This document shows, one piece after another, positions 3,909 to 48,850 of a stretch of DNA of 64,000 nt (its first letter is position 1; each line of letters starts with the position of its first letter). The DNA lies in assembly GCA_963834935.1 (NCBI GenBank), contig CAWIDS010000001.1:139524-203523 (forward strand). Reading direction: 5' to 3'. Position numbers and translations under genes: made by a program. The DNA is from Candidatus Nomurabacteria bacterium. GTDB lineage: Bacteria > Patescibacteriota > Minisyncoccia > Phycocordibacterales > CALRBL01. The notes under the pieces are model-generated. The model saw nothing but the letters and a program-made list of their open reading frames with translations, did no database searches and was not told the DNA's origin.

Positions 3909-3911
3909 ATG

Positions 3912-4469: not shown

Positions 4470-5095
4470 TGCACGGAGATTACGCCTGTATTTGTCACCT
4501 CGACTACCTTCGTCCTGTCGCCGAGAGCTGATTGGATCGTAATATCTGCCTTGACCCTCTTGTAACTGGAAGACGGCGCCGCCGAGTCGATGATCGACGC
4601 CTCAGGACGAGGACGCAGGAAAGTGACGTCTATCTGCGAAAGCGCGGATGAATTGGAAGTATCAAGACATCTGGTTATCGAGCTTCCATCAGTAGTGCAG
4701 ACGCTTTTTATGACATTTCCCGCAGACATGGTGAAATGAGTAATATAAGGACCATCGTCAGTGGGATTGTAAATACCGTCAGGAACGCCGCCCGATGGCG
4801 GCAGATCCGAGAAGAAATAAAAAGAGATGACATTATTGCTATCCTTCTGGAAATCGATGCCGTATCCGTTCGCATAGCCCAAGCTGTCATCATTTCCTTT
4901 AACAAGAATTCCGTATGACTGAGCCTGCCGTATCTCAAGCGCTATTTCATAGGCGGCATTCGTGAGGGCGCTATTGCTCGAGAAACGATTCTGATTAAAG
5001 ATAAAAACAGAAGTAATGATGATAAATATGGCCAGTACGACCAAAAGCTCGATAAGAGAGAAACCGCGAGAGACAATATGCTTCTTCATTACCAA
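4466..5095 (-). CDS. Type IV pilin-like / pseudopilin
   Basis: MVMKKHIVSRG|FSLIELLVVLAIFII is a prepilin peptidase site with Glu at +5. 209 aa. Confidence 0.8.
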   Translation of the reverse strand: MVMKKHIVSRGFSLIELLVVLAIFIIITSVFIFNQNRFSSNSALTNAAYEIALEIRQAQSYGILVKGNDDSLGYANGYGIDFQKDSNNVISFYFFSDLPPSGGVPDGIYNPTDDGPYITHFTMSAGNVIKSVCTTDGSSITRCLDTSNSSALSQIDVTFLRPRPEASIIDSAAPSSSYKRVKADITIQSALGDRTKVVEVTNTGVISVQ

Positions 5096-5119
5096 TATTA
5101 TACTAGAAAGGAAACCTGC

Positions 5120-5914
5120 TTACCACAGGGAAAGGAATGCATTGATGCTGAAGATATCAATATGTATGAGATAAGCGATGAGCAAGCCGAGGACGAGGAA
5201 TGGCGCAAAAGGCACTTCGCTCTTCCACGTGAGATGTTTTCTTTCCTTGAGCGATTTCTGAATGAGAAGGATGGCGACGCTGACTGCCGCTCCGATCCAG
5301 AATGCGAGACAGACTGCCGACAACGCTGATGCCAAGCCAAGAAACCAGCCTATGCCCAAAGCGAGCTTCGAATCGCCGAGTCCCATCCACCTGCCTTTCG
5401 AGAAGAGCCAGAAAAGAAAAAATGGCAAGGCAATGATCGGCCCTGCAAACAGGTCGAAGACGTGCGGATAAGAAAGAAGCTGCCATTGATAGAGAAGAAT
5501 CAGGCGCGCAAGGGCGAAAAAACCGAACAGGAATGAAAAGAGGTCTGGTATGACTGTATGGCGAAGGTCATAGACAATGATAATCACAAGCAGTGAGAAG
5601 CAGATGAGCGTCAACAAAAGCGAAAGTGGATTGGACTCAAGGAAAGCAGCGAGAGCGAAAAGAAGAGCCGTGCCTATCTCGACCAAAGGATACTGGATCG
5701 AGATGGCGCTCTTGCATGAAGAGCATTTTCCCTGCAGGAAAAGGAAGCTGAAGACCGGCACCAGCTCATGCCACTTGAGCTGCTTGCCGCAGGAGAAGCA
5801 TCCTGACCTGCCGTTGATGCTTTTGCCGGTATTGAAACGGAGAATAACCACGTTGAGGAAGCTTCCGACAATCAGGCCGAGCATTCCGAAGACAAAGATG
5901 ATGAAAGGGTTCAT
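5120..5914 (-). CDS. pilD: Prepilin peptidase (A24 family, PilD/ComC-like) with N-terminal Zn-finger
   Basis: 264 aa and polytopic. It carries CFSCGKQL...CSSCKS (tetra-Cys) and GLGDSKL (the GGGDVKL-like catalytic region). It is embedded among the pilin genes. Confidence 0.85.
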   Translation of the reverse strand: MNPFIIFVFGMLGLIVGSFLNVVILRFNTGKSINGRSGCFSCGKQLKWHELVPVFSFLFLQGKCSSCKSAISIQYPLVEIGTALLFALAAFLESNPLSLLLTLICFSLLVIIIVYDLRHTVIPDLFSFLFGFFALARLILLYQWQLLSYPHVFDLFAGPIIALPFFLFWLFSKGRWMGLGDSKLALGIGWFLGLASALSAVCLAFWIGAAVSVAILLIQKSLKERKHLTWKSEVPFAPFLVLGLLIAYLIHIDIFSINAFLSLW

Positions 5915-5926
5915 GTTAAAAGGTTA

Positions 5927-6400
5927 TTAATAAGTTCCGCCGACGGCGTCGAATGTGGTGGCTTTCGTGCCGTCACATGGATCATTGGAGTCGAAAGGTT
6001 TCTTTCCAGCCTTGCCTTGGCCGTTATAAGCATATTCAAGGGTAGCACAGAGATGAAATCCGGCTTTTGACAGCGGATTGCCGGTGTTCGGATTGTAGTA
6101 GAGATATGAAGCCCCTGTCGAAGGATCAGTGGGTATGGAAGTGATGATAGTGTTTCCAGTGCAATCCATATTGGTAAAAGAAGAAAGATCCTTTCCTGTA
6201 TCGGAAGGCGGATAGGTAGAGCAGGAATCAAAATAATTCTCCATAGCTCCTTGAAGCTCTTTGATATCGGCAAGGCGCTTGCTGTCCCTGCCCTCCGCCC
6301 GGGCGACATTGAGGCCGCCGATGACGATTGCTGAAAGTATTCCAATGATGGCAATAGTGACCATTATTTCCACGAGACTGAAAGCCTTATTCTTTTTCAT
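5927..6400 (-). CDS. Type IV pilin (minor pilin, disulfide-containing C-terminal domain)
   Basis: MKKNKA|FSLVEIMVTIAIIGILSAIV. The track ORF starts at 6430, but its first 10 codons overlap the upstream terminator, so I call the start at the MKKNK Met (about 6400). Confidence 0.8.
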   Translation of the reverse strand: MKKNKAFSLVEIMVTIAIIGILSAIVIGGLNVARAEGRDSKRLADIKELQGAMENYFDSCSTYPPSDTGKDLSSFTNMDCTGNTIITSIPTDPSTGASYLYYNPNTGNPLSKAGFHLCATLEYAYNGQGKAGKKPFDSNDPCDGTKATTFDAVGGTY

Positions 6401-6422
6401 TTGAGAACAGTATATCAAGTAA

Positions 6423-6455
6423 TCAAACAAAAACCACCCAAGCGGGCGGTTTTTG
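6423..6455 (-). terminator. Rho-independent terminator downstream of the major pilin gene
   Basis: On the minus-strand RNA, AACCGCCC-GCUU-GGGUGGUU is an 8-bp stem with one G-U pair, followed by UUUUGUUUG. On the plus strand the same stem has an A-C mismatch, so it is directional. Confidence 0.65.
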
Positions 6456-6479
6456 TCATGTCAGAAAGTGATTTCTAGA

Positions 6480-6974
6480 CTATTGGCATACTCCTCCAGC
6501 GACGACGCTGTCAGCATAAGCCTGAGTAGCGGCTGGGGTTCCGTAAGTCTCAACCTGAGACTTACCGCTGCTGTCTACGCACCAGAAGCCTGTTGTCGAT
6601 GTCTTCAACTGTGCAGTGGCAGCCCATGCTCCTGTTGAGCCTGTCGTGTTCATACATGAAGTGATTCCACCTCCAGCAGATTTAGCTGCTGCGATCTGAT
6701 TTGCCATAGTAGTATCAAGGGCAAATATAGTATTAGCAGTAGCACAGCTCGTTTCTCCAGCTGTTGCAGCTGCTGTACCGTAGTTGTTGTTAGTATCGTA
6801 ATAAATAGCGGCTTCAGCTCGCGAGTTGTCGAGGTTGGACTTCACAGCGGCATCTCCTCCTTTCGCTCGGGCGGTGTTAAGGCTGGCAAGAACGACAGAT
6901 GACAGGATACCGATGATTGCGATGACCACCAAGAGTTCGATAAGGGTGAAACCTTTGTTTGAATTTTTTTTCAT
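6480..6974 (-). CDS. pilA: Major type IV pilin (PilA-like)
   Basis: MKKNSNKG|FTLIELLVVIAIIGILSSVVLASLNTARAKG is a textbook type IVa pilin N-terminus. The C-terminal domain is Ala/Thr-rich with 4 Cys. The gene is flanked by its own promoter and terminator. The track ORF, extended upstream to 7043, is probably an over-extension. Confidence 0.85.
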   Translation of the reverse strand: MKKNSNKGFTLIELLVVIAIIGILSSVVLASLNTARAKGGDAAVKSNLDNSRAEAAIYYDTNNNYGTAAATAGETSCATANTIFALDTTMANQIAAAKSAGGGITSCMNTTGSTGAWAATAQLKTSTTGFWCVDSSGKSQVETYGTPAATQAYADSVVAGGVCQ

Positions 6975-7011
6975 TGTTAATGTTAAAACTATTAAAATCT
7001 TCTGTACCGAT

Positions 7012-7019
7012 ATTATACA
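7012..7019 (-). promoter_or_regulatory. Extended -10 promoter element (TGTATAAT) for pilA
   Basis: The minus strand reads ...TTGATTtcggaatatgccTGTATAATatcgg... about 38 nt upstream of the pilA ATG, inside the pilC-pilA intergenic region. Confidence 0.45.
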
Positions 7020-7067
7020 GGCATATTCCGAAATCAACAACAAGCATGTGGATAAGTCTCCGAAGGG

Positions 7068-8279
7068 CTATATCGCCGAGCTGATGTTGTAAATCGGAAT
7101 AAGCACGGAAGCTAGGAGAAAAGCCACGCCAAGGCCGAGCACTACGATCATGACTGGCTCGATAAGGTCCACGAGGGTATCGACGGCATTGACCACCTCC
7201 CTTTGGTAGAATTTGGCGAGCGTGTCGAGGATATTGCCGAGCTGCGCCGTCTCTTCCCCGATCTTTATCATCTGTATCATGATTCCTGGAATATAATCGC
7301 GGTGCTTTGCCAAGGAATCGGAGAGTGATGTTCCTGTCTTTACCCGCTCCCCCACTTCATTAAGGATATTCTGATAGATAACATTGTCGACGACCGCTGC
7401 CGTAAGCTCGATCACCTTAATCATCGGTATGCCGCTTTGAAGCATGGTATTCATGTTGTCGGCGAAGCGCGAGAGATAGAGCTTACGATAAAGGCTTCCG
7501 ACATACGGGATCTTCAGCTTGAGCGAAGAAAAGAATAAGGTTCCTTCATCTTTCCTTGCCCAGCGATAGATGAAAAACCCTAGGATTACCAAGGCAACAA
7601 GGACGAAAGCTCCGTAGTGAATCAGGATATTGCTCATGTCCACCACTATCTGCGTGTAGATAGGGATCTTTTGGCCTGCATCAGTCAGAATGCCACTAAT
7701 GCGCGGAATAACCAAAGTAAGCATCAGTATCATGACAGTAAAGAACGTGCCGATGACAAATGCAGGATAGATGAGAGCGTTCTTGGCCTTGGAAGATACG
7801 GCATAGTTGCGATCGAGATAGTCAGCCAGATAGCCGAAGGTCTGGTCAAGCTTGCCTGATTCCTCGCCAGACTTGACCATGTTCACGTAGAAAGAAGAGA
7901 AGATTTTAGGATGCTTGGACAGCGCCCTCGAGATGCTGCTTCCAGATTGGATGTCGTCCGATACTTCAGCCAAGCTCCTTCGAAGCATAGGGTTGTCGCT
8001 TTCAGCCGCGATCAGCCGGAATATGCGAAGCGCCGATACCTGCGCCCCGAACAAAGTGGCCATCTGCCTCGAGAGGATGACGACCTCCTTGTTCGATACG
8101 TGCTCAAGGAAAGTAAGATTTGAATTCAGGCCTGTGCCGCCGCGGTCGCTTTGCTTTATGGACGAGATGATAAGTCCTCTTCTTTGGAGAGAGTTGATGG
8201 CTACATCAACATTGACCGCATCGATCGATGCTGATTTCTCGATTCCGTCCTTGTCGATTGCAGTGTAGTTAAAAAGCAT
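7068..8279 (-). CDS. pilC: Type IV pilus inner-membrane platform protein (GspF/PilC family)
   Basis: 403 aa, with the two-repeat T2SS-F architecture and 3 TM segments. Confidence 0.85.
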   Translation of the reverse strand: MLFNYTAIDKDGIEKSASIDAVNVDVAINSLQRRGLIISSIKQSDRGGTGLNSNLTFLEHVSNKEVVILSRQMATLFGAQVSALRIFRLIAAESDNPMLRRSLAEVSDDIQSGSSISRALSKHPKIFSSFYVNMVKSGEESGKLDQTFGYLADYLDRNYAVSSKAKNALIYPAFVIGTFFTVMILMLTLVIPRISGILTDAGQKIPIYTQIVVDMSNILIHYGAFVLVALVILGFFIYRWARKDEGTLFFSSLKLKIPYVGSLYRKLYLSRFADNMNTMLQSGIPMIKVIELTAAVVDNVIYQNILNEVGERVKTGTSLSDSLAKHRDYIPGIMIQMIKIGEETAQLGNILDTLAKFYQREVVNAVDTLVDLIEPVMIVVLGLGVAFLLASVLIPIYNISSAI

Positions 8280-8292
8280 TGGTTATTTGTGA

Positions 8293-9363
8293 TTAAAGCA
8301 TCTTTTCTAGGATCTTGGAATTGCTCGAGTGAAGGTAGGCATTCTCGAGGGTGATTTCCCCTTTGCGCACGAGCTCGGCAAGCATGCGATTCATGTCGAT
8401 CATTCCGGATTCGGTACCTGTCTCGATGACAGTATTGATCTCGTGAGTGCGCTTCTCGCGGATGAGGTTTGCAACGGCATTATTAACGATCAAAAGCTCA
8501 TAGACCGGGATGAGTCCGCCCGATATGCGCGACACCAGGCGCTGCGAGAAGACGCCAATCAGGCTTCCTGAAAGCTGCACGCGGATCTGATCCTGCTGAT
8601 TAGGAGGAAATGAGTCGATGATGCGGTCGATGGTCTGGGCGGCATTATTGGTGTGAAGGGTCGAGAAGACAAGGTGCCCAGTCTCCGCTGCTGTCACAGC
8701 TGATGCCATGGTTTCAGGATCACGCATCTCTCCGACCAATATCACATTGACGTCTTGGCGCAAGACATTGATGAGGCCGGTATAAAAGTTGACGGTATCC
8801 AATCGAACCTCCCTCTGATCGATGATTGATTTCTTCTGGTCGTAAACATATTCAATCGGATCCTCGATAGTGATGATGTGCTCGGCTCGCGATCGGTTGA
8901 TGAGCTCGATTATGGCGGCAAGCGTCGTAGATTTTCCCTGTCCGACAGGTCCCACTACCAAGAAAAATCCCTGCTTCTTTGCCGCAAAGACTTCCAAGAT
9001 TGGAGGAAGTCCCAGTTCCTGAAGTCCCCTGATTTCCTTTTGGATCAGCCTCAACGCGATACTGATCAATCCCTGCTGAAAATAAGCATTTCCTCGGAAA
9101 CGGCCGTTCAATCCTTCGGTGGTATATGAAAAATCGATCTCTTTATTCTTGATGAAAAGCTCCTTGCTAGCGGGAGTAAGCAAGATATCCAGGAAAGCCT
9201 TGACATGATCATGAGTAAGAACCTCCTTGCTCACTAAAGGGATGAGCTCTGTGGCGACCCTGATTGCCGGATATCTCCCTTCTGATATATGGAGATCTGA
9301 CCCTCCTTCCTTCACTACGGTAAAAATAAGGTCCTTGAGCTTTTCTTCGTAATTGTTCTGCAT
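8293..9363 (-). CDS. pilT: Type IV pilus retraction ATPase PilT
   Basis: 356 aa. It has the Walker A motif GPVGQGKSTT, Asp/His boxes and PilT size, and is separate from the longer PilB paralogue. Confidence 0.85.
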   Translation of the reverse strand: MQNNYEEKLKDLIFTVVKEGGSDLHISEGRYPAIRVATELIPLVSKEVLTHDHVKAFLDILLTPASKELFIKNKEIDFSYTTEGLNGRFRGNAYFQQGLISIALRLIQKEIRGLQELGLPPILEVFAAKKQGFFLVVGPVGQGKSTTLAAIIELINRSRAEHIITIEDPIEYVYDQKKSIIDQREVRLDTVNFYTGLINVLRQDVNVILVGEMRDPETMASAVTAAETGHLVFSTLHTNNAAQTIDRIIDSFPPNQQDQIRVQLSGSLIGVFSQRLVSRISGGLIPVYELLIVNNAVANLIREKRTHEINTVIETGTESGMIDMNRMLAELVRKGEITLENAYLHSSNSKILEKML

Positions 9364-9364
9364 A

Positions 9365-9766
9365 TTATTTCATTTTGCTTTTCTCTGCGACAATCCTCTC
9401 CACTTCAGCTACCACTTCGGAAGGGATGCTTGTGGCCTTGATAATGTAACCATCCACCTTCAGCGACTCTGCCTTCTCGATATCGCTTACTTGGCCTTGA
9501 TTGGTGAGCATGATAACGATTGCCTTAGGCAAAAGCTTCTCTCCCCTCATATTCGAAAGGAAAGTCAGTCCGTCCACCTGGGGCATGACTACGTCAAGGA
9601 GAATGATATCAGGTACGAAGCCTCCTTTTATCTGCTGCATGGCATCGGCGCCGTCATGGGCAGTGAAAACTTCATAGCCTTTCGTCTTGAACTTGATCGA
9701 ATACATGTCGAGCAGGAATTTGTCGTCATCGATCAGGAATATTTTTAGATTATTTTTATTTTCCAT
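9365..9766 (-). CDS. Single-domain response regulator (CheY-like receiver, PilH/PilG-like)
   Basis: 133 aa, with LIDDD...DIILLDVVMP (phospho-acceptor Asp) and a conserved Lys region. It sits between pilB and pilT. Confidence 0.8.
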   Translation of the reverse strand: MENKNNLKIFLIDDDKFLLDMYSIKFKTKGYEVFTAHDGADAMQQIKGGFVPDIILLDVVMPQVDGLTFLSNMRGEKLLPKAIVIMLTNQGQVSDIEKAESLKVDGYIIKATSIPSEVVAEVERIVAEKSKMK

Positions 9767-9772
9767 TTTATT

Positions 9773-11488
9773 TTAGAGCTTGTTTATTTCCTCGAAAGGA
9801 ATCTTCTTCTCCAATGCTTTTATTATAGCATCTTCCTTCATTGTGAACATTCCCGCCTGGCGGACAATAGGCCACATCGCGCTTTCAGTCGGGTTAGCAA
9901 GGATCATCTTCTCCAATTCTCTGGTCATCTCGAATGCCTCGAATACCGCCATTCGTCCGCGCACGCCTTTCGGGCAATCCGGTGTGGGCTCGATGCCGAG
10001 CACCTCGCTTGCAATCGGGATAGCTTTCTTGTATTCATCGGGAATTTCCTGGAACTCCCTGTCGAACATCACCTTGATGCTACCCTCGATAGGAAGATGT
10101 CTTCCCGTGCCTGGGCAAATCTGAGCAACAAGTCGCTGTGCCATAGTAAGGATGAGCGTCGGAGCGATAAGATAGGGATCGACACCCATGTCTATGAGAC
10201 GGGGAATGGCGCCAAGGGCTGTGTTAGTGTGGATCGTCGAAAGCACCAAGTGTCCGGTGAGAGCAGCTTGTATTGCAAGCTGGGCGGTTTCCTTGTCTCG
10301 AATCTCCCCCACCATGATCACGTCAGGGTCCTGTCGAAGGGCAGTTCGAAGACCGGTGGCGAACGTATAGCCGATTTCCGGATGAACTTGTGATTGAGAA
10401 ACGCCCTCGATGTTGTATTCCACTGGATCCTCGAGGGAAAGCACGTTGTACTCTTCCCTGTCTATCTCATTGAGCATGGAGTAAAGCGTGGTTGATTTTC
10501 CGGAACCAGTCGGACCGGTAATCAGGATCAGCCCATAAGGGCGATTGATGGCGCGCCTTATGATATCGAGATTGCGCTTGCTGAGCCCGACTTCGTCGAT
10601 CCTCTTCACTCCTTTTTCCTGATCAAGGATTCGCATCACGATCTTCTCTCCGTAATACGACGGAAATGTCGAGACACGGAAGTCAATCTTCCTTCCCTCG
10701 ATACGTGCGCTGAAGCGGCCGTCCTGCGGTTTCCTTTTCTCGTCGAGCTTCATGTCAGAAAGAATCTTGATGCGGGCGACCACCGCCGGCTGGACTTTTG
10801 TAGGCAAGACGATGCTGGTATTAAGCACTCCGTCCACCCTGAAACGCACCCTGACATTCTCCCTCATCGGCTCGATATGGATATCAGAAGCATTGCCGTC
10901 GAGGCCGTAGTGAAGGATAGTCGCCACCACTTTAGTGACAGGCGCATCCTCGACAATGTTGATGCTGTTGTCCGAGCTGCTTTGCTTCTTTATCGATTGA
11001 AGCTCTACCCCTTCGTCTGAAAATTCAGTTTCGAGGTCAGTGAGGGCTTTGGTCACTTCGCCTGAAAGGCCTTTGTATGATACCAGCACCTTGTCGAAGT
11101 CTTGCTGGGTGATGAGGAACATCTTGAAGGGCATGTGCACGCGCGAAGAGATGAAGTTCAAGGCATCGGCAGCTCCGATATTCTCCGGATCGACGATTCC
11201 CACTTCGAGCACGCCTCCCTGCACATCGATAGGCACGATCTTGTAATAAGTCGCCGACTCTTCAGGAATGTAACTCAGCATCTCGAAAGGAATATCCTTG
11301 TTTTCGAGGCTTCTAAAAGGAAGCGAGTAATAAGAAGCCTTCTGCTTGTAGATCTCAGTCGGATCGATGCCTTTTGCCACAAGGATTTCTTCGAGGCTTT
11401 TGCCTGTCTCGTCTACTTCCTGGCGGATCGAATCAACATCCCCCTCCTTTATTATTCCGTTTTTTGAGAGTGCTGCTAAGAAGCTCAT
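9773..11488 (-). CDS. pilB: Type IV pilus assembly ATPase PilB (GspE family)
   Basis: 571 aa. It has an N-terminal GspII-like domain and the Walker A motif GPTGSGKSTT. There is no tetra-Cys motif. Confidence 0.88.
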   Translation of the reverse strand: MSFLAALSKNGIIKEGDVDSIRQEVDETGKSLEEILVAKGIDPTEIYKQKASYYSLPFRSLENKDIPFEMLSYIPEESATYYKIVPIDVQGGVLEVGIVDPENIGAADALNFISSRVHMPFKMFLITQQDFDKVLVSYKGLSGEVTKALTDLETEFSDEGVELQSIKKQSSSDNSINIVEDAPVTKVVATILHYGLDGNASDIHIEPMRENVRVRFRVDGVLNTSIVLPTKVQPAVVARIKILSDMKLDEKRKPQDGRFSARIEGRKIDFRVSTFPSYYGEKIVMRILDQEKGVKRIDEVGLSKRNLDIIRRAINRPYGLILITGPTGSGKSTTLYSMLNEIDREEYNVLSLEDPVEYNIEGVSQSQVHPEIGYTFATGLRTALRQDPDVIMVGEIRDKETAQLAIQAALTGHLVLSTIHTNTALGAIPRLIDMGVDPYLIAPTLILTMAQRLVAQICPGTGRHLPIEGSIKVMFDREFQEIPDEYKKAIPIASEVLGIEPTPDCPKGVRGRMAVFEAFEMTRELEKMILANPTESAMWPIVRQAGMFTMKEDAIIKALEKKIPFEEINKL

Positions 11489-11499
11489 TTATTTGCGCA

Positions 11500-11790
11500 T
11501 TAAAAGGGAGCGAACGGATTATCTCGCCCGATCGCCTCATCTGGCAGAGGCTGGCTATAATCCTGGAGCGACATGAAAGCTTTATCCTGGAAAAAAGCGC
11601 CGCTCAGATCGACCCTGCTCAAGAGATTGATCTGATTGATGAATTTCTGGGCAAGAAGGCTGGAATCCGAAAGAGTGGAAGGATCTGAACTCGTAAGAAA
11701 AGCGTCGGCATGGCTCGTCGATGAGAAGAAGAACGAGCCTACGAAAAGAAGAGCTAGTGTCAGAAATGTGGCGATGATTATTTTTTTCAT
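11500..11790 (-). CDS. Small secreted hypothetical protein (possible PilP-like accessory)
   Basis: 96 aa. It has the signal peptide MKKIIIATFLTLALLFVGSFFFSSTSHA and lies between pilO and pilB. Confidence 0.5.
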   Translation of the reverse strand: MKKIIIATFLTLALLFVGSFFFSSTSHADAFLTSSDPSTLSDSSLLAQKFINQINLLSRVDLSGAFFQDKAFMSLQDYSQPLPDEAIGRDNPFAPF

Positions 11791-11796
11791 ATTGTT

Positions 11797-12345
11797 TTAT
11801 TTTAGCCAATAAGTCCTGAGTGTCACGGAAAAATCATATACATTGCTGGTGTCAGTCGGAGTGAAAGATACTGACCTGACGTCGACAAGTCTCAAGCTCT
11901 GCTCGAGCCTCTGGAGAAAAAGGACAAAATTAGGATATGAAGAAGTGACGACGAAGGAAAGATCGACTGATTGAATACCAAAAGGATTATTTGAAGTAGG
12001 ATTGCCGGATTGATCTACTGCGTCTTTGGTATCGGATACGTTTATACTTTTCAAAAGCATGCCCGACTGCAAGGCTATGTTCTTTATGTCGATGATGAGC
12101 TTTACGTTATCGATGGTATCGGGAATAAGTTTGTTAAGGCGATCGACATCCGACTGGCTGAAGCTGGCAAGCTGCTGCTTGTCGGCGCTTATTTTCGCCT
12201 GAAGGATATTTCCCTGACTTAACGCATCATCATAGGTCTTGATCTGGCTTTGGAGAGAAAGGACATTACCATACGCCGGCTTGATCAACCCGAAAAAGAT
12301 TCCTATTGAAGCGAGTATGAGAAGTGAGGCGATGATGTTTTTCAT
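11797..12345 (-). CDS. pilO: Pilus assembly protein PilO-like
   Basis: 182 aa. It has an N-terminal TM, a coiled-coil, then a beta domain, and sits at the pilMNO position. Confidence 0.65.
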   Translation of the reverse strand: MKNIIASLLILASIGIFFGLIKPAYGNVLSLQSQIKTYDDALSQGNILQAKISADKQQLASFSQSDVDRLNKLIPDTIDNVKLIIDIKNIALQSGMLLKSINVSDTKDAVDQSGNPTSNNPFGIQSVDLSFVVTSSYPNFVLFLQRLEQSLRLVDVRSVSFTPTDTSNVYDFSVTLRTYWLK

Positions 12346-12348
12346 ATG

Positions 12349-13029
12349 TTAATTCCCTTTGGTGCTTGTCGAAACATGAGCAGTAGATGTAGCCGCAACA
12401 TTATTGCTTACGACGTTGCTTACGATCGGAGCTCCTCCAAGATTAGCCCTGTATGATATAAGGGAGGGATTGATGCTTGTGATGAGGCTGAAGTCTACAT
12501 TGCCAGTAGGATTCAGCGACAGATCGGAAAAGACGGCATTCTGGAAATTATTGCTTATTCCGGCTATATTCGAGAAATCATCTGCCTGTTTCGCTACTGC
12601 TTCGAAGCTCTGAGCCTCGCCCTTCATGCTCAAGGCTATCTTGTCGCTTGAAAGATATGAAAATGAAAAATCAGTGAAGCGAAGATTCTTCAGCGTAGAG
12701 CTTTGCAAGGCCGCAAACAGGGCTGAGATGGCCAAATGCCCATCCAGAAGGATCTTTCCGGCCTTCATCTTCAGGTCGATGCGTGAAATAGGGTTTATCG
12801 AGGAATAATCGAGCTTATTATTCTCATCAGCGAGGGCGGCGCTTTTGACCTTCAAGCTATTCTGAAGAATATTCTGATAGGCATAAAGGCCTCCTGCAAG
12901 CGCGAGGGTCAGGACAATCAAGATAGAAGCGATTACTAAAAAGATGCTATAAGGGGAAGACATCTTTAACTTTCCTCCATCTTCTATGGTTGTCTTTGGA
13001 ATGAACGAGGTTTGAAATTTACTTTCCAT
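12349..13029 (-). CDS. pilN: Pilus assembly protein PilN-like (fimbrial assembly)
   Basis: It has a single TM (SIFLVIASILIVLTLALAGGLYAY) and follows pilM. The true start is probably the internal Met at about 12963. Confidence 0.65.
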   Translation of the reverse strand: MESKFQTSFIPKTTIEDGGKLKMSSPYSIFLVIASILIVLTLALAGGLYAYQNILQNSLKVKSAALADENNKLDYSSINPISRIDLKMKAGKILLDGHLAISALFAALQSSTLKNLRFTDFSFSYLSSDKIALSMKGEAQSFEAVAKQADDFSNIAGISNNFQNAVFSDLSLNPTGNVDFSLITSINPSLISYRANLGGAPIVSNVVSNNVAATSTAHVSTSTKGN

Positions 13030-13080
13030 GGCAATAGTATAGCAATAATTCCGTCAATTAGCACAAGTTTTCCACATTAT

Positions 13081-14259
13081 TTATTGATTTTCTTCAAGTT
13101 TTCGGAGCGCCACTCCCACGGCGACAGCGAATTCAAGGCCGGTGGAGCGAAGCATCGCCGAAAGATGCGCCGGCGCCTCTACTTTTACGAACGGGTCGCC
13201 GACTTCCGTCTTTATCTGCAGATTTTTTTCCGCCAAAACGGAAAAACCGTCGAATTCTACTCCTCCGCCAGTAAGGATGCATTTTTCGATCGTTCTTTCG
13301 TACTTCCTCTGATAGCTGGTGATGAAATTCCTGCCTTCGGTCCAGACATGATCAAGGGTCAACGACAGGATATCCATGACTGTCTTCTTATCAGTTTCTT
13401 TGAGAGTACCGATATTGCGCTTGATTTTCTCGGCTTCCTTAAAATCGACGCCGAGCGCTTTCGAAAGGTTTTGAGTCATAGTTTCCGATCCCTTGTTGAC
13501 GATGTGCGAGCCGCGGATGACTCCCCTTTCTATTATATAGAACTTGATTCCGAGCGCGCCGACGTCCATCACCAGAAGAGGCTTGTTTTCCCTTCCGACG
13601 AGCGAACGAGTGGCGCTAAACATCTCAATCTCGAAAAAGCTCGTCTCAAGGCTATTGTCTTTGACGATATTGTTGTAGTCGCTGAGTATCTCGTTGTGGA
13701 TGGAGACAACAAGCACGTCGGTCTTGTCCTTTATCCGCGGAAGCTCGGGGCCCGCAATACCGCTTTGCTCGTGAGCCTTGGCTTTCGTCTCCGCTTTCGC
13801 TTCTTCCACCGGATCGTAACTTTCTTTCGGAATGATCCACCAGTCCATAGTCACTTCGGAAATAGGCACGGGGATATATTTGCGGGCTTCGATAGGGATC
13901 ATCTCTTCAAGCTTTTTTTCCGGCAGCAAAGGCATTTCAATGAGCGAGATGAGACTTGAGCGGAAAGGAATGGCTACCCCCGAATTCTTGGTCGAGATAT
14001 TCGCTTCATGAAGGATGTCACGAAGGGCTTCCGCGATCTTGTCATTTGAGAGCTTGCTTATCTCTCCGATAGTGCCGCCAGAATAAGGCCCGAGAGAAAG
14101 CTCGCCGTACGCTTTAAGCACCGCTTTGCCTTTTTCTTTCTTGAGCTCTACCACTTTGATGGAAGAAGAGCCTATATCGATGCCCACGACGCTCTTATTC
14201 AAGGAACCGAGGAAGTTCCTAGGGCTTAGTATTTTTTTGAATGATCCGATTATGTCCAT
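13081..14259 (-). CDS. pilM: Type IV pilus assembly protein PilM (actin-like ATPase fold)
   Basis: It has VVGIDIGSSSIKVVEL near the N-terminus and a sugar-kinase/actin fold. I set the start at MDIIGSFKKIL (14259), not the track's 14379. Confidence 0.8.
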   Translation of the reverse strand: MDIIGSFKKILSPRNFLGSLNKSVVGIDIGSSSIKVVELKKEKGKAVLKAYGELSLGPYSGGTIGEISKLSNDKIAEALRDILHEANISTKNSGVAIPFRSSLISLIEMPLLPEKKLEEMIPIEARKYIPVPISEVTMDWWIIPKESYDPVEEAKAETKAKAHEQSGIAGPELPRIKDKTDVLVVSIHNEILSDYNNIVKDNSLETSFFEIEMFSATRSLVGRENKPLLVMDVGALGIKFYIIERGVIRGSHIVNKGSETMTQNLSKALGVDFKEAEKIKRNIGTLKETDKKTVMDILSLTLDHVWTEGRNFITSYQRKYERTIEKCILTGGGVEFDGFSVLAEKNLQIKTEVGDPFVKVEAPAHLSAMLRSTGLEFAVAVGVALRKLEENQ

Positions 14260-14938
14260 GGAATTTATGAGAGCTTTAGAGAAAATTGAACGCGCACTGC
14301 CATATTTCAAGTATATCATGCTATTTAAACAGCTGCATAGATTAATCAGATCGCACGCCCTCTCTTTTATCTTCGGCACGGTTGAAATCTTTCCGAAGCT
14401 CGACGCTCCCCGCTTGAAAAGGATAATGTGCGCCGACAGCGAGGTCGAATGCTTCGCATTTTTCTCCTACCGCGATCCGGAAATCAAAAAAGCCGTCGCC
14501 GAAATGAAATACCGCCGCAATGCTGAGCTTTTTGAAATCGCCGCGCATCACCTTGCCAAGGAGATGCCGCCATTCGGCAACTATCCCCTTCTCATTCCCG
14601 TGCCTTTATCAGAAAAAAGAAAAAAGCAAAGGGGATATAACCAGACGGAAGAGATGCTCAGGCACATTGGAAGGAAAATTGCCGCAGGAACTGTCGAGAT
14701 CAGGATGGACTGCATGAGCAAGATAATTCACACGCCCCCGCAGACTCATCTGAATAGGAAAGAAAGGATGAAGAACCTAGCTGGCGCATTCAAAGTCCTC
14801 TTGCCAGATATTATCCGTGACCGAGAAATCATCATCTTCGACGACGTCATCACCACAGGCTCGACCATCCGGGAAATAGGCAAAACGCTCAAACAAGCTG
14901 GCGCGCAGAAAATAATCGCCTTTGCTCTCGCTCATTAA
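14252..14938 (+). CDS. comFC: ComF-family phosphoribosyltransferase-like competence protein, without the N-terminal Zn-finger
   Basis: It has a C-terminal PRTase motif (IIFDDVITTGSTIRE) and GYNQTEEML, and diverges from pilM. The start is ambiguous: 14252, 14258 or 14318. The track start at 14126 overlaps pilM and is rejected. Confidence 0.65.
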   Translation: MSMEFMRALEKIERALPYFKYIMLFKQLHRLIRSHALSFIFGTVEIFPKLDAPRLKRIMCADSEVECFAFFSYRDPEIKKAVAEMKYRRNAELFEIAAHHLAKEMPPFGNYPLLIPVPLSEKRKKQRGYNQTEEMLRHIGRKIAAGTVEIRMDCMSKIIHTPPQTHLNRKERMKNLAGAFKVLLPDIIRDREIIIFDDVITTGSTIREIGKTLKQAGAQKIIAFALAH

Positions 14939-16302: not shown

Positions 16303-16353
16303 TTTACCCTAATTCTCATATTCGCCATAATATGCTAATCTGTCTGAACACAT

Positions 16354-16441
16354 GGAGACGTGTCAGAGTGGTCTAACGTACCTCTTTGCTAAAGAGGCAG
16401 GGGCTTTAAACCCCCTCGCGAGTTCGAATCTCGCCGTCTCC
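16354..16441 (+). tRNA. tRNA-Ser (anticodon GCU)
   Basis: Acceptor GGAGACG/CGTCTCC+G; anticodon arm CCTCT-TTGCTAA-AGAGG; a long variable arm GGGGCTTTAAACCCCC; T-arm GCGAG-TTCGAAT-CTCGC. Confidence 0.85.
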
Positions 16442-16446
16442 GCAAA

Positions 16447-16474
16447 CGAAAATCCCGCATGGGATTTTTTGTTT
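16447..16474 (+). terminator. Rho-independent terminator after tRNA-Ser
   Basis: aaaatccc-gcat-gggatttt followed by ttgtttg. Confidence 0.7.
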
Positions 16475-16616
16475 GCGGAGACGAGAAAAGCGCTTAAGCG
16501 CTTTTCGGGCGAGATTCGAAGCCCGATTGAGCAGATTTTACGAGCGAAGCGAAATAAAATATCCAATCGGGGTACTGCCCCTGTAAGGGGAGAATCTCGC
16601 CGTTTAAATTATCAAA

Positions 16617-16640
16617 TAAAAAAGCTGGACAACAGTCCAG
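16617..16640 (-). terminator. Rho-independent terminator for the 16665..16961 gene
   Basis: On the minus strand, GCUGGAC-UGUU-GUCCAGC then UUUUUU. Confidence 0.7.
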
Positions 16641-16664
16641 CAGCTTAGGGTTTCCAGATACAAC

Positions 16665-16961
16665 TCAATCAACCAACTCGCAGGCATCCCTAGCGAAAAC
16701 CAGCTGAGGTATCATGTGTAGCGGAACATTCTCTTCCCACCATTCCGCCGCTTCAGGAGATTTGGCCTTTAACGCATCCATTGCGTCGCTGGTATCAACT
16801 TGGTAACCGCCGACGTTCTCAGCTTCCCCGCCTTTGACGCCGGCCTGCACTCCTGTGGATGACTGGTCTTCCGAAAGCGGAATTTCCACGCCGATCCATT
16901 CTTCCCTTACCCAACCCGGAGCTTGTCCGGGAGGGGTAGATATAATCCTGATTGAACTCAT
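16665..16961 (-). CDS. Hypothetical acidic protein (98 aa), last gene of the ApbE unit
   Basis: An ORF with Trp-rich motifs (EEWIGVEIPL, EAAEWWEENVPL). I recognise no family. Confidence 0.5.
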   Translation of the reverse strand: MSSIRIISTPPGQAPGWVREEWIGVEIPLSEDQSSTGVQAGVKGGEAENVGGYQVDTSDAMDALKAKSPEAAEWWEENVPLHMIPQLVFARDACELVD

Positions 16962-17027
16962 AATGAACTCCTTTGTTTAGTGATCAAATAGAAACTATCA
17001 TTTTTATCTTCATAAGTCGAGAACCAT

Positions 17028-17894
17028 CTACCCAAACATCTCCCCGCCAAAATTCCCTGACTTCTCAATCGACCTATCGCTCCGTATCAGAATATATTCG
17101 AAATCATATGCATCATTGAGACTATCTGCCGGCACGAAGAAAAGACATGTCGCCAAGGCATCTGCCACCATCGCTGTATCTGCAATGACCCAGACAGCCA
17201 TGATTTCCGTCGGCGATACGAGCGTCTTCGGATTCATTATGTGCGTGAATGTTCCCCACTTCCGGCGATTGCCTGCCGATCCGCAAATACTTCTATTCTG
17301 GAGCGGATAAATTCCAATCGCTTGAGTATTATCTTCCGGATTCTCAAGCCCGATGCGGATCGGCTCTTTTCCTTTATGTAAAATATCACCTCCAGCGTCA
17401 ATCATGTATTCAAAGATCGAATTCTCCTCAAGGACTTTTCCGACAAGGTCGACAAGATAGCCTTTCCCTGCGGCGCCAAAATCAAGTAATACCGGCTTTT
17501 TGACGATAAGACTCGGCGGCCTATATTCGATCGCCTCTTCCCATTCGGGTGGAGAGCCGAGCTCTTTCTTTTGCTCGAGGGAATATTCCTTGTCATATCC
17601 CGCATCGGAAATGGCATTGCCGATGAGAGGCGTAACAAGGCTGCCTGTCCGGAGATAGAGATCGCGATAAAGGAAAAGCATTTCCTTCGCGTCGAGTGGC
17701 AATTCAAAAATTCCGGTTTCTTTCGACATCCTTGTCACCAGCGAGTCGTCACGAAAGCGCGAATAGGTTTGGTCGAAGATGTCGATTCTCTTTTTTATAC
17801 GAGAAAAAATAACCTCCGATTCGTCTTCAGACAAATCCTTATACATATCGATGCGCCACGAAGTGCCTATGGCTTTGAAATTGAATTGCTTCAC
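17028..17894 (-). CDS. apbE: FAD:protein FMN transferase (ApbE family)
   Basis: 288 aa. It has LLDFGAAGKGYLVDLV and ICGSAGNRRKWGTFTHIMNP ApbE motifs. There is no signal peptide, and the start is 7 nt after the stop of the upstream gene. Confidence 0.8.
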   Translation of the reverse strand: MKQFNFKAIGTSWRIDMYKDLSEDESEVIFSRIKKRIDIFDQTYSRFRDDSLVTRMSKETGIFELPLDAKEMLFLYRDLYLRTGSLVTPLIGNAISDAGYDKEYSLEQKKELGSPPEWEEAIEYRPPSLIVKKPVLLDFGAAGKGYLVDLVGKVLEENSIFEYMIDAGGDILHKGKEPIRIGLENPEDNTQAIGIYPLQNRSICGSAGNRRKWGTFTHIMNPKTLVSPTEIMAVWVIADTAMVADALATCLFFVPADSLNDAYDFEYILIRSDRSIEKSGNFGGEMFG

Positions 17895-17900
17895 GAGCGA

Positions 17901-18398
17901 CTATGCCTTAGCTTCTGCCTTTATCTGTGTAAGAGCTTCATCAAAACCAATCGGGGTAAGAGAAGAGCCTGAGATGCTGGTCAGATTGATGTCTGCAATA
18001 TTTTTTCCTATTACATACTGCTTATAGCCTGAAAGGAAGCTGCTCTGGTAGCGGCGCGATGTCCCATCCCCTGCTGATGCGGTGGTATTTATCGAAGTTA
18101 TGTCATCATTCTTCAAAGTAAGAGTTACTTGGACTGAATCCTCACCTCCTGGAGACATATATGATCCGCTTGCTGAATAGGTACCATCCTTGTAGGCGGA
18201 ATTCGTGGTGACTGTCGTTGTCGTTTGAGAAACAGTGGTGGTTGTAACAGGCGTTGCTACGGGAGAGGTGACCGATGCGTTCGTCGCAACATTATTATTC
18301 TTCATTTCCTCGAAGATAGTGACAGCCAACACTGCGCAGATGACCACCACGCCGAATGATATTCCTATTTTCTTGTTCAGATATTCTTTGGGTTCCAT
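17901..18398 (-). CDS. Membrane-anchored FMN-binding domain protein (likely ApbE substrate)
   Basis: It has an N-terminal TM anchor, a Thr/Val-rich linker, YKDGTYSASGSY...GG...VQVTLT (FMN_bind-like), and a C-terminal SISGSSLTP resembling the Ser/Thr flavinylation motif. Confidence 0.65.
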   Translation of the reverse strand: MEPKEYLNKKIGISFGVVVICAVLAVTIFEEMKNNNVATNASVTSPVATPVTTTTVSQTTTTVTTNSAYKDGTYSASGSYMSPGGEDSVQVTLTLKNDDITSINTTASAGDGTSRRYQSSFLSGYKQYVIGKNIADINLTSISGSSLTPIGFDEALTQIKAEAKA

Positions 18399-18781
18399 AC
18401 GCAGAGTATATCAGGACCATTCATGAACACAACTAAGGTGGCGAAAGCCAGGCCGAAATCCCGCACACCGATCTCGCCGTAGCCGACGACGAACATGATA
18501 TCAAATAGATGCAATGCCAGGAGAAGAGCGGCGATTCGCGTCTGCCAGCCAAAGAGAAGCATTATTCCAAACACAAGCTCGAAAAGGGCATTAAACAGCA
18601 CGAGCATGCGCGCACTAATATGGCTCACCGCTACTATGTAATCGGGAATGTAAGCGATCCACTGATGATTGTGCATCAATTGCTGAAGACTGAACCAAAG
18701 TATCACTGCCGCCATTGAATAGCGGAGAACGCTCGGAGCCAACGCCTGAAGAAAAACAAGGGTCTTATTTATTGATGTCAT
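18377..18781 (-). CDS. DoxX-family small membrane protein
   Basis: It has 4 TM segments and the LRYSMAAVILWFSLQQL DoxX-like start. I set the start at MTSINK, not the track's 18820. Confidence 0.55.
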   Translation of the reverse strand: MTSINKTLVFLQALAPSVLRYSMAAVILWFSLQQLMHNHQWIAYIPDYIVAVSHISARMLVLFNALFELVFGIMLLFGWQTRIAALLLALHLFDIMFVVGYGEIGVRDFGLAFATLVVFMNGPDILCVWNPKNI

Positions 18782-19031
18782 TATATGAATCGTTAAGGTC
18801 GCTCGAGCTTGCTGTCGCATCCATCACTTTCAATGATGCATTGAGAGAAGCCTGGGCGGCAGTGATATTAGTAATCGCAGTCGTGACAGTGGCGGTATTT
18901 GATGAGGCGGCAGTTGTCGTGGTAGAGCTTCCGTAATTGCTTCCATTCGTACCCTGCAAAGCGATTATGGCAACGATGATGACCAGCGTGGCTATCGTTC
19001 CCATGATGATTTTGAGAGTATTGTTTTGCAT
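18765..19031 (-). CDS. Small membrane-anchored Thr/Ser-rich hypothetical protein
   Basis: 88 aa, with one TM (IIMGTIATLVIIVAIIAL) and a low-complexity tail. Confidence 0.45.
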   Translation of the reverse strand: MQNNTLKIIMGTIATLVIIVAIIALQGTNGSNYGSSTTTTAASSNTATVTTAITNITAAQASLNASLKVMDATASSSDLNDSYNDINK

Positions 19032-19032
19032 A

Positions 19033-19605
19033 TTATTTCAAGAGAGCCTGCACCTCCGGCTTGATAGTGCCCTTGAGGAAATCAGTAACGTCTTTCTTGT
19101 CGGCGTTTACCGTTTCCTGCTCGACCTGCGCGTCCTTTACTGCGGATGCAAACTGTCCTTTTGAGCTTCCGCATCGAAGGCTCTGCGCGGTTTTGAGCTT
19201 ATCTTCAAGCGTTCCTTTATCCGCCACGAGCGTCGCCACCTTATTATTGAGAGTAGCAAGGTCAGCAGTGATCTGGACTACATCCTTCCCCGATGCCTGC
19301 AGAGCTGGCAATCCGGCCTTTATGTTGCCTTCGATAGTCTTGAAGCTAGCAAGATTGCTGCCTGTCCAACTGTCTATGGTGCTAATATGGCCGCTGATTT
19401 TCAAAGCGATAGCGGCACACTTGTCGCCGGAAGGAAGAGTGCTCGAGCCGCCTCCAGTGGCGATCTTGTCAAAAAGCGCGTTCCTGAGCTGGAATTTATC
19501 CCTGAAACCGGTTGTTGCCGTAGATGCGCCTGCGCCGACAGCTAGGGTAAATGACCCCAAAAGAATTATTGCCACTAGGCCTAATAGTATCTTCTTTCCA
19601 TTCAT
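19033..19605 (-). CDS. Secreted/membrane hypothetical protein (190 aa), first gene of the unit
   Basis: It has a signal/anchor KKILLGLVAIILLGSFTLAVGAGA, 2 Cys and a coiled-coil-like C-terminus. Confidence 0.5.
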   Translation of the reverse strand: MNGKKILLGLVAIILLGSFTLAVGAGASTATTGFRDKFQLRNALFDKIATGGGSSTLPSGDKCAAIALKISGHISTIDSWTGSNLASFKTIEGNIKAGLPALQASGKDVVQITADLATLNNKVATLVADKGTLEDKLKTAQSLRCGSSKGQFASAVKDAQVEQETVNADKKDVTDFLKGTIKPEVQALLK

Positions 19606-23500: not shown

Positions 23501-23577
23501 GCGCGTGTAGCTCAGTTGGTTAGAGCACAGAGCTTATACCTCTGCGGTCCTTGGTTCGAATCCAAGCACGCGCACCA
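23501..23577 (+). tRNA. tRNA-Ile with UAU anticodon (CCA encoded)
   Basis: GCGCGTG-TA-GCTC-AGTTGGTTA-GAGC-A-CAGAG-CTTATAC-CTCTG-CGGTC-CTTGG-TTCGAAT-CCAAG-CACGCGC-ACCA. The anticodon loop CTTATAC puts TAT at positions 34-36. Confidence 0.8.
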
Positions 23578-23579: not shown

Positions 23580-24203
23580 TTATTCCTTCGCCATCTCGAT
23601 GATCATGTTGTGAAGCCAGTTGGTGCTTGCGGGCAGGATGTTGAAAAGGATGGCGATGGCGAAAAGCGCAATTGAAAGATTCGTATTCCAAAGGCTGCAG
23701 ACTATCGCCAATATCGCGGCAAAGACCGGAAAGAGGATCCTGACATATCCGCTTATCTTGTCATCCTTCGAAACAGGATTTATCTCGACATGAGGATTTT
23801 CTTCGACATATCTGCGCATGAAGAAAAGGGTCATGCCGATGGCGATGACATTGCATCCGTAAAGAAAGATAGCCACCCTGCTCGCTGAATAGATTCCGAG
23901 AAGATGAGCCGAGAAAGGCACCAAAGTGATGAGCAGGAAAAAGAGGGCGTTGTAATTGGCCAAGCCGACAGTGATATTCTTCGCATACATGCTGACAATG
24001 AAATGATGCGCGCGCCAATAGGTGAAAAGCAGCGCGAAGCTCAGTACCAGGCTCGCGAATATTCCGCCCATATCGGCCAATGATTTCCACAGAGAAAGGT
24101 CGAAGGACCCGTCTGCGACCGGAACCTTAAGGTCGAAAGCAAGCAATGTCATGACGATGGCGAATATACCGTCTGCAAGGCCGTCAAGTCGCTGCTGTTT
24201 CAT
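23580..24203 (-). CDS. TMEM175/DUF1211-family putative K+ channel
   Basis: RLDGLADGIFAIVMTLLAFDLKVP matches the DUF1211 signature helix. 207 aa with 6 TM. Confidence 0.7.
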   Translation of the reverse strand: MKQQRLDGLADGIFAIVMTLLAFDLKVPVADGSFDLSLWKSLADMGGIFASLVLSFALLFTYWRAHHFIVSMYAKNITVGLANYNALFFLLITLVPFSAHLLGIYSASRVAIFLYGCNVIAIGMTLFFMRRYVEENPHVEINPVSKDDKISGYVRILFPVFAAILAIVCSLWNTNLSIALFAIAILFNILPASTNWLHNMIIEMAKE

Positions 24204-28814: not shown

Positions 28815-29450
28815 TTATTTTACCTCAATGATGACTTCGCTCTCTGCGAATCGTGATTTCTTGTAGGCAGCAGTCGCGTCTGAAGGATCGCGGAAGCCGA
28901 CAGCAAGAAGCACTCGAGACTCAAGGTCCATGGCGCCCAAGCCAAGTATCTCGTCGAATTTTGCATTGTCGAATCCTTCCATCGGACATGCATCGATGCC
29001 TTCGCTAGCAGCGGCAGCGAGGCCGGTTCCGAGTGCGATATACACCTGGCGCGAAGACCATTCTTTTGTCTGCTCTGGCGTCCTTGATTGGATGCTTCCC
29101 TTCATCATGTCTCCGAAGCCTTTGAGCGATTCGACGGTTAAACCTCGGGTATCAGCGACAGACTTTACGTATTTGTCCACAAAAGAGGCATCGACGTTCT
29201 TCTGGACAGCGAGGACAATAAGATGCGAAGCGTCAGTGATCTGAGCCTGGTCCCATGCCGCGGCGCGGAGCTGTGCCCTGACTTCAGGATTAGTGACTAC
29301 TATGAATTTCCATGGCTGAAGTCCGTAAGACGAAGCAGAAAGCCTCATAGCTTCAGTAATAGTGTGAATCTGCTCGTTAGTGAGCTTCTTTTCCTTGTCG
29401 AATCCTTTAGTCGCGTAACGCCAATTCAATGCTTCAATGATATTTTTCAT
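28815..29450 (-). CDS. NAD(P)H nitroreductase family protein
   Basis: 211 aa with the nitroreductase fold motifs (RYATKGFD, GLQPWKFIVV, IALGTGLAAAASEGIDACPMEGFD). Confidence 0.8.
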   Translation of the reverse strand: MKNIIEALNWRYATKGFDKEKKLTNEQIHTITEAMRLSASSYGLQPWKFIVVTNPEVRAQLRAAAWDQAQITDASHLIVLAVQKNVDASFVDKYVKSVADTRGLTVESLKGFGDMMKGSIQSRTPEQTKEWSSRQVYIALGTGLAAAASEGIDACPMEGFDNAKFDEILGLGAMDLESRVLLAVGFRDPSDATAAYKKSRFAESEVIIEVK

Positions 29451-33194: not shown

Positions 33195-33264
33195 ATTAAG
33201 TCAATTATTTATAACCGTGCTAATGCAGATATTGTAGCATATCCAGCCTTTTCCCTTTCCGTTG

Positions 33265-34074: not shown

Positions 34075-35660
<1,586 letters not shown>

Positions 35661-45559: not shown

Positions 45560-48850
<3,291 letters not shown>

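Follow-up and report, generated by a model that had tools for sequence, protein, structure and literature searches.

Gene content of the locus

The 64-kb stretch of DNA analysed here (the window) belongs to a tiny-genome, Patescibacteria-type bacterium and carries, at 16665-19605, six co-directional open reading frames (ORFs) on the minus strand, among which are genes for a DoxX protein, a membrane-anchored protein with an FMN_bind-like domain, and ApbE, of the FAD:protein FMN transferase family (FAD, flavin adenine dinucleotide; FMN, flavin mononucleotide). Our analysis points to these three genes as a possible DoxX-type variant of the Nqr/Rnf-like flavinylated electron-transfer system, in which the flavinylating enzyme and its presumed substrate domain appear to lie on opposite sides of the membrane. 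The spacing within the run ranges from a 22-nt overlap, that of the DoxX and FMN_bind genes, which are in different frames, up to 66 nt. The run is closed by a terminator-like hairpin (GCTGGACTGTTGTCCAGC at 16641-16624 on the minus strand, then TTTTTTATTT), which is GC-rich, with a 7-bp stem containing 5 GC pairs and a loop of 4. The layout given in the original prediction, six co-directional genes with a closing terminator, was thus confirmed, and the ApbE, the membrane-anchored FMN_bind protein and the DoxX that it named are all real. Coordinates are collected in Table 1.

Table 1. The six ORFs of the run, the predicted layout of the FMN_bind-like protein and the closing terminator (window coordinates).
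Feature	Position	Strand	Description
g1	19033-19605	-	190 aa; signal-peptide-like N-terminus (hydrophobic residues 6-24), helical C-terminal half
g2	18765-19031	-	88 aa, or 79 aa from internal Met; anchored by a transmembrane (TM) segment (hydrophobic residues 8-26), Thr/Ser-rich
DoxX	18377-18781	-	134 aa from likely start at 18781; ORF reaches 18820
FMN_bind-like protein	17901-18398	-	165 aa, membrane-anchored
N-terminal TM helix of FMN_bind-like protein	18312-18368	-	Predicted layout
Thr/Val/Pro-rich linker of FMN_bind-like protein	18198-18311	-	Predicted layout
FMN_bind domain	17904-18197	-	Predicted layout
Ser146 codon	17961..17963	-	Predicted FMN-phosphoester acceptor in S-G-S-S(146)-L-T
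ApbE	17028-17894	-	288 aa, GTG start; leaderless, FAD:protein FMN transferase family
g6	16665-16961	-	98-aa soluble protein, between ApbE and terminator
Intrinsic-terminator-like hairpin and T-tract	16614..16641	-	Ends co-directional run

Conservation and synteny of the module

With one genome scanned per species, relatives turned up in at least 146 species-representative genomes, and 80 loci were retrieved. These are mostly from Patescibacteria (Paceibacteria, Nomurabacteria, Saccharimonadia, Peribacteria, Dojkabacteria and Magasanikbacteria), with three from Actinobacteria (Nakamurella, Cellulomonas and an Actinomycetes metagenome-assembled genome) and a few bearing other taxon labels. ApbE directly follows the FMN_bind gene in 75 of the 80 loci, at a median gap of 8 nt, and hence the arrangement is not due to chance. 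DoxX adjoins the pair in 42 loci, where it lies on the upstream side of FMN_bind or on the downstream side of ApbE. A further 27 loci have, next after ApbE, a gene for a fusion of ~500 residues between an NqrB/RnfD-like membrane domain and NAD_binding_1, and none of the 80 loci holds both DoxX and this fusion. A tblastn search with two of the fusion proteins gave no match in the window. The window proteins share 37-55% (FMN_bind) and 40-55% (ApbE) identity with those of the 27 fusion-type loci, and the pair is orthologous to that of the Nqr/Rnf-like flavinylated system described by Méheust et al. 2021 (PMC8238504) and in mSystems 2024 (PMC11334425), in keeping with the resemblance to ApbE-associated extracytosolic redox clusters that had originally been noted. 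In one locus (L020:5464-6351, plus strand), a single ORF of 295 residues reads DoxX-TM-linker-FMN_bind with the anchor helix kept, and is a natural fusion or else the product of a frameshift in the assembly.

The other three genes of the run showed no such association. Relatives of g1, g2 and g6 were not found beside the module in the 80 loci (phmmer, E up to 0.01), g2 in the same genome excepted, and g1 and g2 gave no family match in profile searches. The g6 family consists of 28 homologues of ~97 residues, restricted to Paceibacterota and with no Pfam domain in any of the 28, and the two that were examined stand in unrelated neighbourhoods, one with TsaD and a tRNA synthetase, the other with UvrA, HIT and MazG. 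The proposal of a six-gene unit was therefore not sustained, and g1, g2 and g6 are, by these comparisons, lineage-specific passengers outside the conserved module.

ApbE lacks a signal peptide throughout its clade

ApbE matched its Pfam family (PF02424) at 132.2 bits against a cutoff of 25.6, with residues 10-258 on profile positions 2-250 of 266, and in alignments to the E. coli and Salmonella ApbE structures its GKGY, THIMNP and ADAL fell on the active-site motifs GKGY/GEGY, SHVIDP (with the catalytic His) and ADAW, respectively. The window protein is predicted to transfer FMN from FAD to a Ser/Thr target, as a member of this Mg-dependent family. It does not have the N-terminal signal or lipoprotein peptide that is typical of the family, though not universal in it, and its residue 7 (in KAIGT) pairs with residue 21 of the E. 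coli ApbE chain that was crystallised without its signal peptide. The FMN_bind stop is separated from the ApbE start by 6 nt (window 17895-17903) rather than the 7 nt first reported. At this junction, ...GCA TAG TCG CTC GTG AAG..., the stop is in frame with ApbE, two codons upstream of the GTG, and ApbE therefore cannot extend further at its N-terminus.

In homologues the alignment begins at residues 1-3. Among 120 of them (272-327 residues long), none had a hydrophobic N-terminal segment or an amphipathic N-terminal element, and a twin-arginine translocation (Tat) motif was also not found on ApbE. The missing signal peptide, correctly spotted in the original prediction, is shared by 120/120 homologues of the clade and therefore is no start-codon artefact; by every available sign in these sequences, ApbE is cytoplasmic. 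Stop-codon read-through into an anchored, exported FMN_bind-ApbE fusion was considered and rejected, because the two genes are in frame in just 24 of the 75 loci with the adjacent pair (32%), which is the one-third expected by chance, and most of the stops are TAA.

The FMN_bind protein and its predicted flavinylation site

The family of the FMN_bind protein is large and conserved well, with 227 matches, and is named 'FMN-binding' by JGI and NCBI. In a set of 36 homologues, 17 matched PF04205 weakly (best E 2e-5), and the Cellulomonas orthologue passed the gathering score of this profile (22.4 vs 22). The PplA model gave a weak, compositional match to the window protein (17.8 bits against a cutoff of 325). 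Presence of the FMN_bind fold in the window protein is supported by an AlphaFold2 model (36 sequences), in which a TM helix at residues 7-33 and a disordered linker precede a confident alpha/beta domain at 68-165.

The protein contains TSISGSSLTP, of which Ser143, Ser146, Leu147 and Thr148 are invariant in the 36 homologues. Across the 80 loci this flavinylation-like motif reads [S/A/N]-[G/S/R]-[S/A]-S-L-T, with a core of [S/A]-G-[S/A]-S-L-T, the position before the acceptor (-1) being Ser or Ala across homologues. The established flavinylation motif is D-x-x-[S/T]-G-A-[S/T], in which replacement of Asp by Ala has a minor effect and Ser is tolerated as acceptor (PMC12052999); T-S-I-S-G-S-S of the window protein occupies the position of this motif, with Ser at the acceptor site. 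The invariant Ser146, which agrees with the Ser/Thr flavinylation site first proposed, is accordingly placed as the residue predicted to accept FMN.

The FMN domain probably faces outside

A single N-terminal TM segment was present in 117 of 120 FMN_bind homologues. Among the 118 with at least one TM segment, Lys/Arg (K/R) content was higher on the N-flank in 64, equal on the two flanks in 43 and lower in 11, with a net charge of +0.8 on the N-flank compared to -0.4 on the other, and the K/R excess (64 vs 11) favours an N-in anchor. The linker, with a median length of 52 residues, is composed of 20% Thr, 15% Pro and 13% Ser (48% together). In five orthologues (L051, L053, L069, Cellulomonas L076 with LASC, and L079 with LAGC) a lipobox takes the place of the anchor, and the neighbouring ApbE is equally leaderless in all five. 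The actinobacterial signals are MRTPRRTTIAL...LASC (L076:5287-6441), MRAHRRSFVLL...LAGC (L079:5707-6336) and MPARRLRC...LGGC (L079:3586-4023), so that all three lipobox-bearing actinobacterial copies (one in L076 and two in L079) have twin arginines in the n-region, with HRRSFVLL being Tat-like. This suggests that the actinobacterial orthologues are Tat-exported lipoproteins beside a leaderless ApbE.

Going by charge bias, linker composition, the lipoprotein signals of orthologues and the DoxX fusions described below, the FMN domain is probably outside. With the domain probably outside and ApbE leaderless, the mismatch in sidedness raised by the original prediction is therefore real, and is family-wide. 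That prediction had also allowed for a cytoplasmic FMN domain, which would have made this an ordinary cytoplasmic pairing; the evidence points the opposite way, and the puzzle is sharper than was stated. The mismatch is conserved clade-wide, the published Nqr/Rnf-like system included, and neither PMC8238504 nor PMC11334425 comments on the missing ApbE signal.

A DoxX subfamily with fusions to redox carriers

DoxD is a subunit of thiosulfate:quinone oxidoreductase, and DoxX is also found in Mycobacterium tuberculosis. The window DoxX has the four-helix membrane fold and matched PF07681 at 35.6 bits against a cutoff of 23.6, besides a weaker match to DoxD. In its small subfamily, which at E up to 1e-3 takes in 478 representatives out of 1.84 billion, several members have DoxX followed by a fifth hydrophobic helix and then by an extra domain. 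DoxX-TM-cytochrome-b5 fusions span one to five cytochrome-b5 domains: P0287, P0295 and P0323 carry one or two, and P0313 (1615 residues) carries five, interleaved with five Big_7 (immunoglobulin (Ig)-like) and five fn3 domains. The latter protein looks like an extracellular heme-b5 array held by DoxX. In P0369 the fusion involves a lipoprotein-type signal and an NTF2-like domain, and in P0346 the order is signal peptide, Cys-rich repeats, TM, DoxX, TM and b5.

The domain order of P0346 places the DoxX termini inside and the appended b5 carrier outside, and the distribution of K/R across 41 DoxX sequences fits an N-in, C-in arrangement. Polar residues that are near-invariant (N64, E68, H91, R107 and D108) lie within the helices and, from their helix positions, may be directed toward the outer half of the membrane. 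In the Firmicute system for extracellular electron transfer (EET), the NADH dehydrogenase is itself a Pyr_redox_2 and DoxX fusion (PMC8238504 supplement). The mutual exclusivity between DoxX and the NAD(P)H-binding fusion, together with the fusions of DoxX to two unrelated redox carriers, argues that DoxX is the electron-transfer partner, in the membrane, of an extracytosolic carrier.

A proposed DoxX-type variant of the Nqr/Rnf-like system

Altogether, with a probability that we put at roughly 0.55 for the reading as a whole, the functional unit would consist of three genes, for DoxX, the FMN_bind protein and ApbE, and would be an undescribed DoxX-type variant of the Nqr/Rnf-like flavinylated electron-transfer system, with flavinylation in the cytoplasm, an external carrier and DoxX as redox partner. 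In this scheme, a cytoplasmic ApbE using cytoplasmic FAD would bond FMN through a phosphoester to Ser146, probably while the C-terminal motif has yet to cross the membrane. The FMN_bind protein would be held by its N-in N-terminal helix and would display the flavinylated domain of ~100 residues outside, on a Thr/Pro-rich tether of ~35-50 residues, a topology to which several independent lines point. The four-helix DoxX would act as the membrane redox partner in place of the NqrB/RnfD-NAD(P)H-binding fusion of the sister loci, and would connect the flavin outside with an electron pool in the membrane or the cytoplasm, as the mutually exclusive synteny and the domain fusions suggest.

The published Nqr/Rnf-like system and the window share the same anchored NqrC/RnfG-like FMN_bind family, directly followed by the same leaderless ApbE clade, and the taxa match, since that system is a two-subunit one of Patescibacteria and Actinobacteria. 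Unlike it, the window lacks the defining fusion of NqrB/RnfD (PF03116) to an NqrF-type NAD-binding domain (PF00175; definition in supplementary file 2 of PMC8238504). A DoxX of 134 residues stands in place of the fusion subunit, which leaves the module without an NAD(P)H site; since the fusion form is the published system, it is the DoxX variant in the window that would be new. DoxX does not appear in such a role in the main text of PMC8238504 or PMC11334425, and the literature searched contained no paper that connects DoxX to either ApbE or FMN-binding proteins, and none that connects ApbE to Patescibacteria.

For the order of maturation, ApbE is known to modify 7-residue terminal tags with no need for a folded domain, and cytosolic ApbEs exist (PMC12052999), which together favour cytoplasmic flavinylation followed by export. 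FAD is present in the cytoplasm, so no FAD exporter would be needed, and neither an FAD exporter nor an ECF (energy-coupling factor) component was found in general Pfam scans, which took in ~50 window ORFs. Ser146 lies 20 residues from the C-terminus, so that its segment would be one of the last to exit the cytoplasm. Because Tat carries proteins that are already folded and loaded with cofactor, a leaderless ApbE would be unproblematic in Actinobacteria with twin-arginine signals. None of the 120 Patescibacteria-type homologues has a twin-arginine motif, so export there would have to use Sec, for which SecD and SecF are encoded in the window, and passage of an FMN-bearing chain through the Sec channel seems to us physically plausible. 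The more far-reaching proposal, in which the flavin is attached in the cytoplasm and the modified protein then exported by Tat in Actinobacteria and by Sec in Patescibacteria, and in which, moreover, the DoxX subfamily is an unrecognised transmembrane electron-transfer module, we regard as tentative and rather doubtful in this combined form.

Several observations weigh against the DoxX-type variant as set out above. The FMN_bind call of the original prediction is supported by the PF04205 matches of homologues, but the window protein itself had no PF04205 match at E up to 1 and fell short of the curated threshold, and the motif deviates from the canonical one in having no Asp at -6 and Ser for Ala at -1. 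The assignment of sidedness draws on charge bias, fusions and orthologue signals; a twin-arginine motif was found in 0/120 Patescibacteria-type FMN_bind homologues, and we know of no precedent for Sec export of a chain carrying FMN. A redox role for DoxX is suggested by its associations and not by a demonstrated cofactor, and its sole solved structural relative is NACHO, a membrane-protein chaperone. An NAD(P)H-binding partner was not found in the window by tblastn and Pfam scans. Finally, to judge by the title of PMC7507113, quinones and electron-transport chains are presumed absent from these organisms.

Alternative explanations

Export of ApbE by an unrecognised signal-independent route (leaderless or piggy-back), with flavinylation outside at the expense of exported FAD, we consider unlikely, even if it survives best of the alternatives. 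It would conform to every characterised extracytosolic system, in all of which flavinylation occurs outside (PMC12052999, PMC8238504), and to a FMN_bind domain that is very probably outside, and the tight coupling of the two genes, with their median gap of 8 nt, would permit co-assembly. Yet not one of the 120 ApbE homologues has a hydrophobic or amphipathic N-terminal element, no Tat motif was found, the window genes scanned include no FAD exporter or ECF component, and Patescibacteria and Actinobacteria alike have kept the loss of the signal, an argument that the cytoplasmic location is real.

Were the FMN_bind domain cytoplasmic instead (N-out, C-in), ApbE and its substrate would form an ordinary pair at the inner face, with electrons passing to DoxX from inside, and the leaderless ApbE would be fully explained. 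Cytoplasmic ApbE-substrate pairs are known in Klebsiella (PMC12052999), and the charge bias of the anchor is moderate, 43 of 118 homologues having equal K/R on both flanks. We nevertheless judge this arrangement distinctly improbable, given that the bias is N-in in 64 homologues vs 11, that linkers are rich in Thr, Pro and Ser, and that five orthologues bear lipoprotein signal peptides. Fusions of the four-TM DoxX to a fifth TM segment and a further domain, one of them with fn3/Ig arrays and one with a secreted Cys-rich domain in front, put the carrier outside, and the NqrC/RnfG homologues are periplasmic, with the published model docking this subunit on the outer face (PMC11334425).

A single functional system of all six genes, in which the small anchored proteins are extra subunits or acceptors, would account for their common direction, tight spacing and shared terminator and for the export- or anchor-like N-termini of g1 and g2, but is very unlikely considering that g1, g2 and g6 are without homologues beside the module in the 80 loci at the phmmer threshold given above, that g6 family members occur in unrelated contexts and that none of the three has a redox-domain signature. 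Least probable of all is that DoxX serves the anchored flavoprotein as scaffold or assembly chaperone, with the flavoprotein trading electrons elsewhere. Against this stand the mutual exclusivity of DoxX with the NAD(P)H-oxidising NqrB/RnfD fusion, its repeated fusion to cytochrome b5 and FMN_bind, two unrelated redox carriers, its fusion to the NADH dehydrogenase of an EET system and its conserved intramembrane polar set N64, E68, H91, R107 and D108.

Comparison with other flavinylated and DoxX systems

Flavin-based EET of Listeria and other Firmicutes (PplA, FmnB, Ndh2, EetA/EetB) likewise has an ApbE-family enzyme that flavinylates a surface-tethered FMN_bind protein, as well as a DoxX domain, fused to its dedicated NADH dehydrogenase. 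It differs in that PplA and FmnB are lipoproteins matured outside, whereas in the window the ApbE has no leader and a TM segment anchors the substrate, which has one FMN_bind domain. The Ndh2, quinone-synthesis and EetA/EetB-like partners for which the original prediction had recommended a search did not turn up: the ~50 window ORFs scanned include no Ndh2 (K03885)/Pyr_redox, EetA/EetB-like, quinone-synthesis or FAD-export gene. Compared to NQR/RNF complexes served by a periplasmic lipoprotein ApbE, the window is without the other NQR/RNF subunits and its ApbE has no lipoprotein signal, and compared to NqrC/RnfG the acceptor is Ser instead of Thr in a motif without the leading Asp. The cytoplasmic ApbE of Klebsiella pneumoniae (PMC12052999) also has no signal peptide and works in the cytoplasm, but its substrate is a soluble fumarate reductase and not an anchored, apparently exported protein. 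With the DoxX/DoxD family at large, the window DoxX shares the four-helix fold; it differs in belonging to a distinct subfamily tied specifically to extracytosolic carriers, FMN_bind or cytochrome b5, and in a host lineage where no quinone pool is expected.

Other features of the window

The remaining ORFs covered by the Pfam scans are of housekeeping type (type IV pilus, LigA, RecG, CysRS, SecDF, FtsK and RecA), plus one nitroreductase. The latter, a nitroreductase-family protein at 28815-29450 (-), is the sole other apparent flavoprotein found in the window. A large type IV pilus cluster at 3348-14379 (-) comprises five N_methyl pilin-like genes, a prepilin peptidase, a PilC-like T2SSF protein, two T2SSE ATPases and PilO, and its upstream ORF (13081-14379) looks PilM-like. 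A homologue of TMEM175-type potassium channels is encoded at 23580-24203 (-). The 16S rRNA gene (34073-35669, -) is set ~10 kb of protein-coding genes away from the 23S-5S pair (45555-48853 and 45356-45464, both -), and the 23S match, at 3299 nt, is longer than the 2925-nt model, which suggests insertions of ~370 nt. A tRNA-Ile with anticodon TAT (UAU), uncommon in bacteria, lies at 23501-23577 (+), and an ordinary tRNA-Ile(GAT) at 33264-33337. An ORF of 98 residues at 16352-16648 (+) was discarded as spurious; it sits over tRNA-Ser(GCT) (16354-16443) and the terminator region.

Implications

The main protein-flavinylation survey (PMC8238504) kept just genes with predicted signal peptides and used PF04205, and the candidate phyla radiation was strikingly under-represented in it. 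The module escapes both filters because its FMN_bind domain is sub-threshold and its ApbE leaderless, and with relatives in at least 146 species-representative genomes, that under-representation may in part be a detection artefact. Our analysis puts DoxX forward as a candidate for one more class of membrane component for electron transfer associated with flavinylation, and the finding of an exported substrate beside a leaderless ApbE poses the question of where and when covalent flavinylation takes place. Cytoplasmic flavinylation before export, if true, would be a maturation route undescribed for ApbE substrates and one that needs no FAD export. The DoxX module, if true, would supply extracellular carriers of flavin or cytochrome-b5 type in bacteria that are believed to have no electron-transport chain, and such an external redox outlet would bear on the reductant balance or host interaction of fermentative Patescibacteria.

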